This document shows, in pieces, positions 11,972-17,715 of a stretch of DNA of 64,000 bases. Position 1 is the stretch's first letter. Every line of letters begins with the position of its first letter. This DNA comes from Candidatus Heimdallarchaeota archaeon. GTDB taxonomy: Archaea; Asgardarchaeota; Heimdallarchaeia; Heimdallarchaeales; Heimdallarchaeaceae. The position numbers and the translations under genes were made by a program. Under the pieces are notes generated by a model, which saw nothing but the letters and a program-made list of their open reading frames with translations, was not told the origin of the DNA and ran no database searches. Location of the stretch: NCBI GenBank assembly GCA_018238545.1, contig JABCTC010000001.1, positions 32,001-96,000 on the forward strand. The letters are read 5' to 3'.

Positions 11972-12238
11972 TCATCGATAAACTTGCTTTCGATGAGCTA
12001 TTTTGATAATAACTACTACACATTCGTCTGTGTAAATTTTGTAAAGAATTCGATAGTCACCAATTCTTGTTCTGTAGATATTTTCAACACCCTTTATTTT
12101 TTTGGAAGAAATTAGAAAAGGATTCTTAAAATTTGGTAAAAAGTTTTTGATTTGTTGTTTTGTTTTCTTAGGTAATTTCTCTAATTCCTTTGATGAAACA
12201 GGTAACAGGAAAACTTCATAGATCTGGCTACCTGCCAT
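11972..12238 (-). CDS. relE: RelE/ParE family toxin
   Basis: YRTRIGDYRILY and AHRKQVY motifs. Confidence 0.92.
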   Translation of the reverse strand: MAGSQIYEVFLLPVSSKELEKLPKKTKQQIKNFLPNFKNPFLISSKKIKGVENIYRTRIGDYRILYKIYTDECVVVIIKIAHRKQVYR

Positions 12239-12438
12239 TATTCCACCTTGATTAATCTCTCAAAATCCTTTTGTTTAATAATTTTATCAGCTTGACCAAT
12301 TCTCTCTTTTTCCTCCTCAGAAAGATATTCTTCTTCAACTAATAGTAATAATAGCTCCTCAATTCTATCAATCTTCTTCTTAAGAAAACTGATTTTATCT
12401 ATAAGAATTTCCACTTTATCTACAGTCATTGGTGACAC
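12238..12438 (-). CDS. Antitoxin for the RelE toxin
   Basis: Small, coiled-coil start and acidic middle; stop overlaps the relE start. Confidence 0.8.
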   Translation of the reverse strand: MSPMTVDKVEILIDKISFLKKKIDRIEELLLLLVEEEYLSEEEKERIGQADKIIKQKDFERLIKVE

Positions 12439-12520
12439 GTTTATAACTCTACAGAAGTATTTAATGTTTATTATTTGTTAAGAAGTTCATATTGGTAAAG
12501 CAAAAAAGAGCGTATCTATG

Positions 12521-12567
12521 AAAATAAAGGAAGAATCAACCTCCCAAGTTGAAAAAAATTAATAGAC
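12521..12567 (-). repeat. Cassette-boundary repeat R1: relic of the 16555 gene's stop and terminator
   Basis: TCAAC-CTCCCAA-GTTGA hairpin plus TTAATAGAC (Val-Tyr-stop on the minus strand). Confidence 0.8.
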
Positions 12568-12649
12568 ATTGGAGACTGTTACAATTATTAATCTTATATT
12601 AGGTTAACTTTATTAACTCAGTTATATAAGTATACTTAAGTGAAAAAAT

Positions 12650-13033
12650 ATGTCTGTACTCATAAAAGAAGTTGACAAAGAACTTTATGCAAAATTCAAA
12701 TCAAAAGCAGCTCTAAAGGGTTTGCGTATAAATGAAGCTTTTGCTGAAGCAATGATTAAATGGTTAGCTGAAGAGCAAGAAAAAGGTGAGAAGGATTTGA
12801 TGAGACAACAGAATAATGCAACGTATAGACGAACGCTACCAAATTTAATGAAAGAATATGAAGGCAAATGGATAGTTATTTCTGAAGGTTTAATAATTGG
12901 GATTTTCGAAAACCGAGACGAAGCGATAAAAGCTGTTAAAATCAACAAGCTTGAAAATAAGAATAATATAGTATCACCTATTCTTAAAGAAGGTCGAAGA
13001 ACAGAATTTGGTTTCAGGAGGAAAGATTCTTGA
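12650..13033 (+). CDS. RHH plus DUF5678-like protein, putative antitoxin
   Basis: N-terminal RHH pattern; YEGKWIVISEG motif; 4-nt overlap with next gene. Confidence 0.7.
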   Translation: MSVLIKEVDKELYAKFKSKAALKGLRINEAFAEAMIKWLAEEQEKGEKDLMRQQNNATYRRTLPNLMKEYEGKWIVISEGLIIGIFENRDEAIKAVKINKLENKNNIVSPILKEGRRTEFGFRRKDS

Positions 13034-13446
13034 AGAATATCTTTGATTACAAACCGTCATCAAGTTCAAGTGAACTAGCTCCATATGTTGATTTATTAAT
13101 AAGCGATCCTCTTGGTTCAAAGTCAATAGAATGTAGTGCAATGATAGATACTGGATACGATGGGGAAATTGTTGTTCCAGTAAAGCTATATGATGACCTA
13201 AATTTATCCGCTTTTGAATATAGTGAAAATCTATTTGCTAAAGCTGAAACAATTACAGGAGAGAAATTTGTTTTAAGAACAGCAAGTGGTTCTGTAACTG
13301 TAAAGGGTATAGATGTTTCAATCGTGACAACAATTGATACTCATCGATCTTTAACTGAAACTCTAATTGGAAGGAAGTTTCTGGAATCATTTGATGTGTT
13401 ACTTAAAGGAAAAGATAAAAAAATAGAATTAACCTTCATTGAATGA
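13030..13446 (+). CDS. Clan AA aspartic protease (AF_0612-like)
   Basis: IDTGYDG and LIGRKFL motifs. Confidence 0.85.
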   Translation: MKNIFDYKPSSSSSELAPYVDLLISDPLGSKSIECSAMIDTGYDGEIVVPVKLYDDLNLSAFEYSENLFAKAETITGEKFVLRTASGSVTVKGIDVSIVTTIDTHRSLTETLIGRKFLESFDVLLKGKDKKIELTFIE

Positions 13447-13469
13447 TTATAAAAGATAGACAATCAAGA

Positions 13470-13741
13470 TCATGGTTTTTTGTAAGCGTCTTTCCTCCAT
13501 CCTATAAACTAAATAAGAATCTTGCTCTCATTCCATGAAACGGTATAGACAACTCTGATATTTCCAAAACGAGCGCGAAAAGTATTTGTAAAGGTTTTGA
13601 GTTTAACAATGTCATATTTCTTGCTTGGAACAGCATGATCCTTGATGACAAGAAGAAAATCGTGGATTACCGTTTTTTGAGATTTGTCTAAACCTTAAAT
13701 GAATTTTAAAGCAGACTTTTTATTGAAATTTCAAAAGTCAA
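13470..13741 (-). pseudogene. RelE-family toxin pseudogene
   Basis: Manual translation gives FRARFGNIRVVY and IGWRKDAY, with one frameshift and two in-frame stops. Confidence 0.8.
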
Positions 13742-13929
13742 CTTGTTAGCTCCTTAAATAAAATTTCCTCGCTAACAGTGTCTTCATTGTTTTTAATTAC
13801 TGAAATTTCATCAGAATAAGCTTTTTCTTCTTCAGTGATAAGCAAGTGAAGAATAGTATTTGAAATAGTAAAAAGCTCTTCTAATCTGTCTTTTATTTTT
13901 TGAATTTCTTGTTCTAATGAAGATGTCAT
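13738..13929 (-). CDS. Antitoxin of the decayed RelE
   Basis: 63 aa, acidic; overlaps the pseudogene's TTG start. Confidence 0.75.
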   Translation of the reverse strand: MTSSLEQEIQKIKDRLEELFTISNTILHLLITEEEKAYSDEISVIKNNEDTVSEEILFKELTS

Positions 13930-15749: not shown

Positions 15750-15830
15750 TAAAGTCAGATTATAGATTGAACAAAAATATTTAATCTTTATCATCAAAAA
15801 GAAATCTAATCTTTTGTAAATAATAAATAT

Positions 15831-15860
15831 AGAGAAAAGAAAAACCAACCTTTAAGATGT
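15831..15860 (-). repeat. Degenerate cassette-boundary repeat R4
   Basis: AGAGAAAAGAAAAACCAACCT; right arm of the hairpin lost. Confidence 0.4.
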
Positions 15861-15972
15861 CCTCATAAAAATAAGACACATTTATTCAGTAGAACAGGTA
15901 TTATTCATGACGATACTGGAATAAAAATCAAACAGAATTATTTTTATATTTCGTAAGACTTGTTGACATATA

Positions 15973-16206
15973 ATGAGTATTTTTAATTACAAGGTTTTGT
16001 TAAGAAAGGAACCAGAAGGAGGATACACAGTCATAGTTCCCACTCTTCCTGGTTGTATAACATATGGTGAGGATATCGATAATGCAAAAAAGATGGCAAA
16101 AGAAGCTATAGAGATTTACTTAGACAGTTTGCGAGAACACGGAGAGGAAATACCCACAGAAGATGAAGTTCTTGAATATACTGTAATGGTTGAGTTAAAT
16201 GCCTAA
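15973..16206 (+). CDS. hicB: HicB antitoxin (short form)
   Basis: GGYTVIVPTLPGCITYG motif. Confidence 0.92.
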   Translation: MSIFNYKVLLRKEPEGGYTVIVPTLPGCITYGEDIDNAKKMAKEAIEIYLDSLREHGEEIPTEDEVLEYTVMVELNA

Positions 16207-16414
16207 ACTTCCTTCTCTAAATTCAGATAAAGTCATCAAAATACTCAAGAAAAATGGGTTTATATTGGATAGGACAAAAGGTAGTCATCGAATTTATTAC
16301 AATCCTAAAACTAAACGAAGAGCTGTTGTTCCGTATAAGAAAAAAGATTTACCTAAGGGGACATTGATGTCAATAATACGACAAGCAGGACTTGAAAAGG
16401 AAGACTTGTACTAG
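16199..16414 (+). CDS. hicA: HicA toxin
   Basis: GFILDRTKGSH and LPKGTL motifs. Confidence 0.92.
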   Translation: MPKLPSLNSDKVIKILKKNGFILDRTKGSHRIYYNPKTKRRAVVPYKKKDLPKGTLMSIIRQAGLEKEDLY

Positions 16415-16507
16415 TTTCTTTGCTTATATGTGAAAGACATTATTATATTTCATGAAGTAGAATTACATTTTTTTCTCACAAATATTAACGAGGATAAAAC
16501 TAACTTA

Positions 16508-16550
16508 AAGAAAGAAAAGGAAATCAACCTCCCTTGGTTGAAAAAATGAA
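16508..16550 (-). terminator. Terminator of the EhpF-like gene (master copy R5 of the array repeat)
   Basis: TCAACC-N6-GGTTGA hairpin flanked by T-tracts on the minus strand, directly after the stop. Confidence 0.75.
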
Positions 16551-16554
16551 TTGT

Positions 16555-17715
16555 TTAGTAGACTCCTAATTGCTGACCTTGAGAGAGATCTCTGTGAGGA
16601 TCACGAGCACCATCTGTATAGTCGAATTTTCCTTTTGGCTTAATCAAAGTAGCAATATCACCATTTTGAACAAGTGCAGGAATAACTGTTTCAGGACTGA
16701 TTCGTTGAGAAACAACGGTACCCATTTCACCATAATTTATTCGGCTCTTGATGTCATTTTCATCAGAGACTAGGAACATATTCATTCTTGGGTGACTGTA
16801 GTAATCAATATGATGGTTATCAAAGTCAGGACTCTGGAAAGCTGTACCAAACAAACTTTGACCGTAGAAACCTATTACAGGAAGTCCCATATCTTCAGTT
16901 AGAACCTTCAGAGTTTCATTCGATAAAGGTGTGCCCCCATGGACAATTACTTGAAGATTACCTTTCTCTTTCAAAGCTTGAATAAGTGGGAAGGATTTCT
17001 CAATTAGTACACCAGTAGTGAATAACCCTTGGATGAATGGGAATTCTTGCTTGACAAGAGCTTGAGTCTGGTCTTGCATGTGTTGCAAATACATACCCAT
17101 GATCCTTTTATCAACCATTGCTGCTTTCTTAACGAAACGAGAATCCATGTCAATCATGAAAATGGATTTAGCTATGTCACGTTCGAAAGATTTGATTGTC
17201 CATTTACCTATAGTATGAGGTCCTGTTGGTACAGTTGCTAGATAAGTCAAATGAAGTGGAATACCAAAATCTTCGAATTGAGTCATACAAAGTTTTGTAA
17301 GAACATTGAAGGTATCAGTTTCGAGGTCGAAATAATCCATGCTGTCAAAGTCTATTCTAGTGGTGTTAGCCGCCAAAATATTTTTTTTCGGCGCGCCAGT
17401 TGTGCCTCCAGTTTCTGCTACTTGCAATTCTGCACCAGGTGTGCGAGAATACCATTGGTGAGCCCATTTGGTGGTAGTATAGTTTACCGAGTGTTCTCGG
17501 AATATGTTCGGGTCGGTGGGTCCAAAATGTTCTGCTAGGTCAAACCAATTGTTGACGTCTCCTTTATTTATTCCCCTTTCCTTTGCTAACTTAATCATAT
17601 AGGGCGAACCTGTTTCTTCCCCTATTGCTATATCGACACATTCCATCAGGAAATCTGTCTGATCAGTTTTGTTTATTATTGATGTTTTGTTTTTTGTGGA
17701 TGTAGATGAAGCCAT
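16555..17715 (-). CDS. EhpF-like adenylating-enzyme superfamily protein
   Basis: ETGSPY, ETGGTTGAPK, GPHTIG, IDMDSRFVKK and C-terminal GVY. Confidence 0.7.
   Translation of the reverse strand: MASSTSTKNKTSIINKTDQTDFLMECVDIAIGEETGSPYMIKLAKERGINKGDVNNWFDLAEHFGPTDPNIFREHSVNYTTTKWAHQWYSRTPGAELQVAETGGTTGAPKKNILAANTTRIDFDSMDYFDLETDTFNVLTKLCMTQFEDFGIPLHLTYLATVPTGPHTIGKWTIKSFERDIAKSIFMIDMDSRFVKKAAMVDKRIMGMYLQHMQDQTQALVKQEFPFIQGLFTTGVLIEKSFPLIQALKEKGNLQVIVHGGTPLSNETLKVLTEDMGLPVIGFYGQSLFGTAFQSPDFDNHHIDYYSHPRMNMFLVSDENDIKSRINYGEMGTVVSQRISPETVIPALVQNGDIATLIKPKGKFDYTDGARDPHRDLSQGQQLGVY

Follow-up and report, generated by a model that had tools for sequence, protein, structure and literature searches.

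We analysed a stretch of 64,000 nucleotides (hereafter the window) from a Candidatus Heimdallarchaeota archaeon (assembly GCA_018238545.1, contig JABCTC010000001.1, positions 32,001 to 96,000), in which an array of small gene modules separated by copies of a short repeat lies behind the 3' end of a gene for an EhpF-like protein. We refer to this gene as the anchor and to the repeat as the site. The window is part of contig C43 of the metagenome-assembled genome (MAG) G000, which has a size of 3.63 Mb and a GC content of 34%; further G numbers denote genomes of relatives, L numbers denote loci, and X1 and X6 are metagenome runs. The array has a GC content of 30%, lower than that of the anchor (39%) and of the window as a whole (33%). 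The EhpF-like gene was present in all five genera of the family Heimdallarchaeaceae, and the cluster to which its protein belongs carries the name Candidatus Heimdallarchaeaceae. Across 30 other genomes of the Heimdall class that were searched there was almost no EhpF-like gene, and no phenazine genes were seen adjoining the anchor. The features are listed below from the anchor outwards, with coordinates as window positions and a unit defined as the stretch from site to site. Pfam cut-offs were applied to the module assignments.

16555-17715, minus strand: anchor gene, EhpF-like protein of the adenylate-forming fold, 386 aa (phmmer match to the PDB entries for EhpF, 3l2k/3hgu, E 1.4e-12).
16555-16589, minus strand: last 35 coding bases of the anchor, the commonest start of copied tails (AGAG/ATCT).
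16500-16554, minus strand: master site M, with post-stop spacer, T-run, 6-bp hairpin (16524-16541) and polypyrimidine tract; 46 bits, a terminator-like match.
15855-16533: unit 1, 679 bp, with hicB (15973-16206, plus) and hicA (16199-16414, plus), assigned by Pfam; missing from both L185 and the X6 contig.
15830-15854, minus strand: R4, right half of a site only; 14.5 bits, background level.
15032-15854, minus strand: unit 2, 823 bp, with a chimeric antitoxin open reading frame (ORF, 15420-15848) and mazF (15107-15466); PemK/MazF passes Pfam.
15005-15087, minus strand: R3, site that includes the anchor's final 35 coding bases in decayed form; 29 bits.
14024-15031, minus strand: unit 3, 1008 bp, with MNT (14501-14974) and HEPN (14060-14494), assigned by Pfam (Pol-beta MNT, HepT).
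13995-14040, minus strand: R2, site with an MNT-HEPN-specific left flank; 39 bits; the X6 joint ends here.
12546-14023, genes on both strands: unit 4, 1478 bp, two units fused after loss of a site near 13450, with relB2 (13738-13929, minus), a relE2 pseudogene (13479-13721, minus), an aspartic-protease-like gene (13030-13446, plus) and an RHH-DUF5678 gene (12650-13033, plus).
12520-12562, minus strand: R1, full hairpin without a real coding tail; 43 bits; orthologous junctions in L185 and G028.
11920-12545, minus strand: unit 5, with relB1 (12238-12438) and relE1 (11972-12238), assigned by Pfam (ParE).
11893-11919, minus strand: start of a further anchor tail, cut by a tnpB element; repeat of 16586-16612.
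10530-11892, minus strand: tnpB-only element (ORF 10530-11789), which terminates the array in this assembly.

A preliminary description of this locus had reported six two-gene modules in mixed orientation, and all six were recovered where it had placed them. RelE/ParE, HepT, MNT, PemK/MazF, HicA and HicB pass the Pfam cut-offs; DUF5678 and the aspartic protease fall below them. The RelBE module that had been called decayed is indeed so, as its relE2 carries two in-frame stops and is 88% identical to an intact relative. In the antitoxin ORF of unit 2 a RelB1-like start is fused to a MazE-like end.

In the direction of the anchor a site consists of the final codons, the stop, a spacer with a T-run, a hairpin of 6-7 bp whose right half is GGGAGGTTGA, and a polypyrimidine tract. 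The 9-mer core occurs at 12536, 14014, 15022 and 16524, and forms the only intergenic cluster of an exact 9-mer (at least four G+C, at least three copies) in the genome. The core together with the right arm was matched five times in the 3.63 Mb, with four of the five matches inside the array. For the genome scan we used a site matrix built solely from the sites of relatives; it is weighted to the right half and shorter relics would therefore escape it. The four strong copies took ranks 1-4 (46, 43, 39 and 29 bits), compared to 21.5 bits for the best control. Three of the four internal repeats reported earlier (12536, 14014 and 15022) are thus among the top matches of the genome. The fourth and weakest, at 15845, scored 14.5 bits, which is within the background, and comprises the right half only, a form that matches right-half-only junctions in relatives. 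A common genome-wide terminator is ruled out by the genome counts, the matrix ranking and the unique 9-mer cluster. The exact 21-base site pattern matched ten contigs among 185,579 species genomes, and all ten belong to Heimdallarchaeota MAGs. An Rfam search returned no family, and a promoter scan remained at chance level. We conclude that the repeat is genuine and delimits mobile modules.

Within the genus, the nine bases that open the right block show 88-100% conservation behind 24 anchors, compared to 67% for third codon positions; the anchors that align without gaps share 66-87% nucleotide identity. Stem variation at these 24 anchors consists of G-T wobbles or mismatches without compensatory changes, and the spacing between the arms ranges from 6 to 10 bases. 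The hairpin is absent behind the EhpF-like gene in four other genera, where a plain T-tract is found. Among 77 internal sites the left arm is kept at 55 and missing at 22. The preliminary description had taken the repeat for a relic of the anchor's terminator. Its derivation from the 3' end of the anchor was borne out, whereas the terminator relic is insufficient as a full account because the hairpin is missing in those four genera, shows no compensatory changes and so often lacks its left arm.

The copied coding tails range from 0 to about 106 bases. A recognisable tail (18-106 bases) is present at 25 internal sites, and most of the long tails match their own or a near anchor best. In 12 of these 25 the distance from the start of the tail to the end of the stop codon is 32-40 bases, and among 15 independent tails about 7 have their start no more than 7 bases from one point (P 0.003 in a rough simulation carried out post hoc). 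Since tails of differing length precede a conserved right half and T-tract, the site is duplicated with a fixed right edge and a variable left edge. Anchor codons had been thought to persist at both R1 and R3. For R3 this holds, with about 35 decayed coding bases rather than 20, and the same type of tail is better preserved in L208. The Val-Tyr-stop of R1 lacks the spacer, is not retained at the orthologous junction of L185 or G028, and probably arose by chance.

We surveyed 26 loci with 67 closed site-to-site units. The units typically measure 0.5-1.5 kb (median 955 bp, 58 of the 67 at most 1.6 kb) and their sizes are preserved across distant species. They fall into 46 families, 11 of which are shared between arrays. 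The arrays of relatives behind the EhpF-like gene differ in content and carry repeats at their junctions, as the earlier model of variable cassettes had predicted. Nine of the 11 shared families are toxin-antitoxin (TA) or TA-like, judged from their ORFs. Many singleton units carry membrane, secreted or metabolic genes, and the idea of an array with TA content only had to be given up. Both gene orientations are common, several reverse-strand cargo genes terminate inside the site, and no conserved terminal motif was apparent at the unit junctions by inspection.

Every module of the window array matches relatives site to site. Unit 4 is 95.1% identical to its counterpart in L185; the mazF part of unit 2 is common to L207, L208, G002, G023 and G007; the left flank of R2 recurs in G009 and L208; and in G016 and L208 a unit of the type of unit 5 directly follows the anchor. 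The MNT-HEPN unit occurs in five genomes with five different upstream neighbours, and the three units of L207 recur in L208 in another order. Between G000 and G009 the MNT-HEPN unit is 89.9% identical compared to 67.3% for the anchor. Other comparisons of unit and anchor gave 83.9 versus 69.0% and 81.9 versus 66.2%, and a further unit reached 99.1% versus about 89% for the last 168 bases of the anchor. Because shared units vary in neighbours and order and exceed the identity of the anchors, they move laterally. Anchor ends are also replaced, as shown by post-stop spacers that differ inside one array. One vapBC unit bears host-type tails in both G001 and G023, and blocks bounded by sites also occur elsewhere than behind the anchor, which includes a genus where the anchor is without the site. 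A vapBC pair at 18684-19323 of the window, upstream of the anchor and without sites, is homologous to a unit in the arrays of relatives; it is possibly a source or an escaped unit.

The point of entry can be seen in two places. L185 lacks the three anchor-proximal units and is joined site to site, so that the stretch 14022-12531 stands there first behind the anchor (95% identity). Likewise, a contig from the independent cold-seep run X6 joins 13998 to 16512, with the three units between two sites missing; this joint was seen in one contig with a depth of 5.7 that is about 95% alike. Together with the differing post-stop spacers, these cases uphold the claim that new units enter next to the anchor, and to this insertion model we add the re-excision and exchange of units. 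The strictly ordered array that had been envisaged was not found: unit orders are permuted between relatives, and decay correlates only weakly with rank (rho -0.25, points not independent), with no gradient in the window array.

One contig of run X1, which is possibly the source sample, covers 11817-16614, and the same array recurs in two other assemblies, which rules out an assembly artefact for this interval. L209 still has a site at the junction equivalent to ~13450, and thus the unmarked junction in unit 4 once had a site that was later deleted. The antitoxin fusion suggests another lost site. At the far end, L208 and L209 extend the sequence of 11893-11919 into a full tail and site. For the join across tnpB there was no bridging contig among those listed for four runs, and this join may be a rearrangement or a misassembly. 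Contig C103 carries a tail end and a site behind a truncated tnpB, adjoining genes that in relatives are found on the far side of the array; the carboxypeptidase gene of relatives is preceded by enolase and not by this array. From this tail and site and from the gene order of relatives it follows that the array probably once extended further and came apart at tnpB copies, through either a rearrangement or a misassembly. The tnpB-only element has more than 15 relatives in the genome.

A second type of array was found behind hppA in the same genus: L107 (G004), L109 (G012), L095 and L103 (G011), L104 (G017) and L106 (G001). Its repeat is unrelated to the EhpF site and has its own short hairpin and T-tract. 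The TA families of the hppA arrays are those of the EhpF arrays but form lineages of their own (72-80% identity to the EhpF versions), and the hppA tails start at the same five letters as the common start of the EhpF tails. One hppA end in G011 is a chimera of the native and an incoming type, and G001 holds a foreign-type tail; the hppA of G000 itself (C81) has no array. Furthermore, a tail of 170-190 bp from an ABC transporter gene is duplicated around one cargo gene of 420 aa (L152:5872-7558 in G012 and L153:7349-9013 in G009). The EhpF-like 3' end is one of several gene-capture platforms in this lineage.

Further repeats in G000 were recorded alongside. An exact 41-bp duplicate of a gene stop with T-tract flanks 0.8 kb (C67:1332-1372 / 2142-2182), and other single gene-end duplications lie at C103:32797, C119:7184 and C68:7737. 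ATCTT was rejected as a general rule for such duplications, as it applied to one case (C67) among 54 repeats. At C103:26707-27435 three copies of the 5' start region of a gene (30-37 bp) surround a RelBE pair, an insertion that duplicates a gene start rather than an end. Contig C126 (11.3 kb, GC 39%), which may be a binning contaminant, has five direct copies of an unrelated repeat of ~60 bp among small genes at ~2066-8743, including a probable TA pair. At C26:36259-36529 a 38-bp repeat is present four times with a period of ~76 bp, forming a short CRISPR-like array.

With regard to its architecture, we are confident that the EhpF-like 3' end is an additive gene-capture site of one genus of the Heimdallarchaeaceae. 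Boundaries, variable content, shuffling, lateral exchange and variable tails were observed, and the array corresponds to the description of additive flexible genomic islands. In Alteromonas such islands mostly use tRNA or tmRNA targets and their cassettes are often large (PMC4898812). As in those islands, there is a fixed hotspot with cassettes of variable number and order (here 46 unit families at 26 loci), part of the target gene is repeated downstream of the cassettes (here as 25 long tails that match the anchor), and near-identical cassettes occur in different species independently of core divergence (PMC4898812). The differences are that the target is the end of a protein-coding gene with a genus-specific hairpin core, that the units are ~1 kb with nearly all junctions marked, and that the host is an Asgard archaeon. 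We found no description of such arrays, of Heimdall TA arrays or of Asgard serine recombinases in the literature covered, outside of which most subscription papers lie; the available passages of the paper on circular Heimdallarchaeum genomes (PMC8813620) contain no mention of such arrays, and the word 'toxin' is absent from the paper.

We infer a mechanism of circular intermediates and single crossovers. A unit would be a small piece of DNA that carries one or two cargo genes together with a copy of the site (core and T-tract with a variable anchor tail). A single crossover at any point of the shared sequence between the last codons and the core would bring the unit in, leaving the anchor end intact with the cargo behind it and the displaced old end as the next repeat. 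Recombination between direct copies would loop units out, and these could re-enter elsewhere or in another species. Deletions would shorten tails down to the core or remove sites, so that neighbouring units become fused, and new joints of cargo and tail would arise by illegitimate joining. The excess of TA modules among shared units would be expected because the loss of a TA module is penalised, as the biology of these modules suggests.

The most likely catalyst is the host's general homology-dependent recombination with no dedicated enzyme linked to the array, to which we give about even chances. Variable tails, variable arm spacing, chimeric ends and the use of several unrelated anchors favour it. 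Several points weigh against it. Recombination of the RecA/RadA type works poorly on repeats as short (20-60 bp) and as divergent (70-90% identity) as these. The core is better conserved than third codon positions, as described above, and the clustered starts of the EhpF tails together with the same five letters at the hppA tails hint at a specific cut. Finally, no circular unit was seen among the assembled contigs, to which this search was confined. A conserved core, boundaries that are precise across species and the clustered tail start keep readings based on a recombinase or on decayed elements alive.

We searched for a candidate enzyme. No tyrosine recombinase was detected in the seven array-bearing MAGs and none is core to the family (MAGs 80-92% complete). 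In agreement with the preliminary description no integrase was found in the window, and no IntI-type integrase was found there or beside any array. Two PF00589 matches in the genome, on contigs of 2.5-2.8 kb, fall below the family cut-offs for IntI and XerA. The genome has no match to the Y1 transposase (PF01797), no intact Cas1 (a 107-aa fragment lies away from the array), and as its sole reverse transcriptase one of the group II intron type on a 3.5-kb contig, not linked to the array. IS607-type recombinases are present elsewhere in the genome, with no site beside them. Weak PF07508 matches in the genus were rejected, being acidic proteins with a short C-terminal match only and no catalytic domain. 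What the family does have are two core chromosomal serine recombinases, syntenic paralogues of ~240 aa with a catalytic domain, a short recombinase domain and intact catalytic motifs; one of the two sits behind a small GTPase-like gene. Matches to these proteins were found in 28 of 30 family genomes and in none of 133 other Asgard genomes searched (E 1e-20), and the family has mobile paralogues in addition. The core proteins are weakly similar to XisF and CcrA/B. In G000 the two core copies lie at L092:1222-1935 (C6:7209-7922) and C88:39720-40421, and a further short serine recombinase lies at C26:28982-29686. These enzymes may serve in chromosome dimer resolution or in cassette movement.

The array could accordingly be read as a sedentary integron-like system, in which trans-acting core serine recombinases move units at the central AT of AGAG/ATCT or at the core. 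The near-universal presence of two such paralogues in a family without a core tyrosine recombinase speaks for it, as do the clustered tail starts and the precise boundaries across species. On the other hand, no site was found beside the core serine recombinase genes or any recombinase gene examined, and the genes are also present in genera whose anchor has no site. Moreover, the arm spacing is variable, half of the tails start elsewhere, one clade does not retain the palindrome of the tail start, and several unrelated anchor sequences are in use. We consider this system unlikely. Its broader form, in which the family-specific serine recombinases act in trans on the EhpF-like, hppA and other gene ends and move 1-kb circles between sites and species, is in our view distinctly unlikely.

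The units could also be remnants of the cis-mobilizable element (CIME) type, left by integrase-bearing elements that used the gene end as attB and decayed to cargo between att copies. Tandem accretion is a known route to arrays (PMC5704250; PMC6563490). With the accretion of integrative mobilizable (IME), integrative conjugative (ICE) and CIME elements the array shares repeated insertion at a gene end, att-like direct repeats and members without an integrase (PMC5704250); tandem archaeal elements likewise target protein-coding 3' ends, restore the gene end and use one site in tandem (PMC6563490). A serine-recombinase module beside the ABC-tail duplicate in G012 and G009 also favours such an origin, and the variation among tails could reflect identity blocks of variable extent or the trimming of ends. 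The same features are familiar from staphylococcal cassette chromosome (SCC) and pseudo-SCC elements at rlmH, with repeated insertion at a gene end, att-like repeats and some members lacking an integrase. However, a search of genomes, loci and viral contigs turned up no autonomous member with an integrase. Judged from the ORF lists, none of the 67 closed units has an integrase-sized mobile module, and in the viral contigs (IMG/VR) no convincing site was found, as two isolated matches inside ORFs of unrelated viruses were taken as chance. Independent decay would not keep unit sizes across distant species, and many cargoes are ordinary host-type genes. Tandem accretion uses a fixed crossover inside att repeats of 8-60 bp; the tails here show both a mode at 32-40 bases and a range of 0-106. 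Crossover position and tail length vary, and units of one or two genes are reshuffled at constant size. The archaeal elements of PMC6563490 are in contrast multigene and carry an integrase or casposase, and casposons have a casposase of the Cas1 family, PolB and terminal inverted repeats, whereas here there is only a Cas1 fragment and no terminal motif shared among units. The array also differs from IS200/IS605 peel-and-paste units, which use Y1 and do not duplicate their target, in that the site is duplicated at each junction. We doubt that the units are such remnants.

In another scenario a nick or break at the T-tract (an RNA 3' end or a fragile site) primes synthesis on foreign DNA, and re-annealing upstream copies 20-130 bp of the host end, so that every cargo would be captured independently. 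The duplication with a fixed right and a variable left edge agrees with this, as do the reverse-strand cargo genes that end inside the site and the single gene-end duplications elsewhere in the genome. Nevertheless, shared units keep both boundaries across species and are therefore mostly re-used and not fresh captures, and the only reverse transcriptase is the intron-type enzyme mentioned above. As a general account we regard this as improbable; it may explain the first origin of new units.

The array behaves like integrons and integron-less clusters of attC sites (CALINs), including archaeal ones (PMC9668308), in its small, TA-rich, reshuffled cassettes, same-direction repeats and additions at one end, and integrons are enriched in Asgard MAGs (PMC9668308). 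Yet the membership in integrons proposed earlier, and with it a degenerate integron or CALIN, is largely refuted and very improbable: despite AAC...GTT arms there is no attC (R''/R' boxes, inner L boxes, a hairpin of about 55-141 bp), as the 6-10 bases between AAC and GTT leave no space for L boxes and RYYYAAC and GTTRRRY occur in 4% and 12.5% of anchor sites, no IntI with an attI was found in the window or beside any array, gene orientation is mixed, the cassettes have their own upstream regions, and the repeat derives from a host gene end.

Searches for integrons that are based on attC would miss these arrays. With short defined sites, exact unit boundaries and two candidate enzymes, the growth of additive islands that lack an integrase becomes directly testable. 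If serine recombinases do act in trans on these gene ends, the archaea closest to eukaryotes would have in this system a functional counterpart of chromosomal integrons. Through these arrays the Heimdallarchaeia, the archaeal group nearest to the eukaryotes, have a concrete means of acquiring genes and of exchanging them between species.

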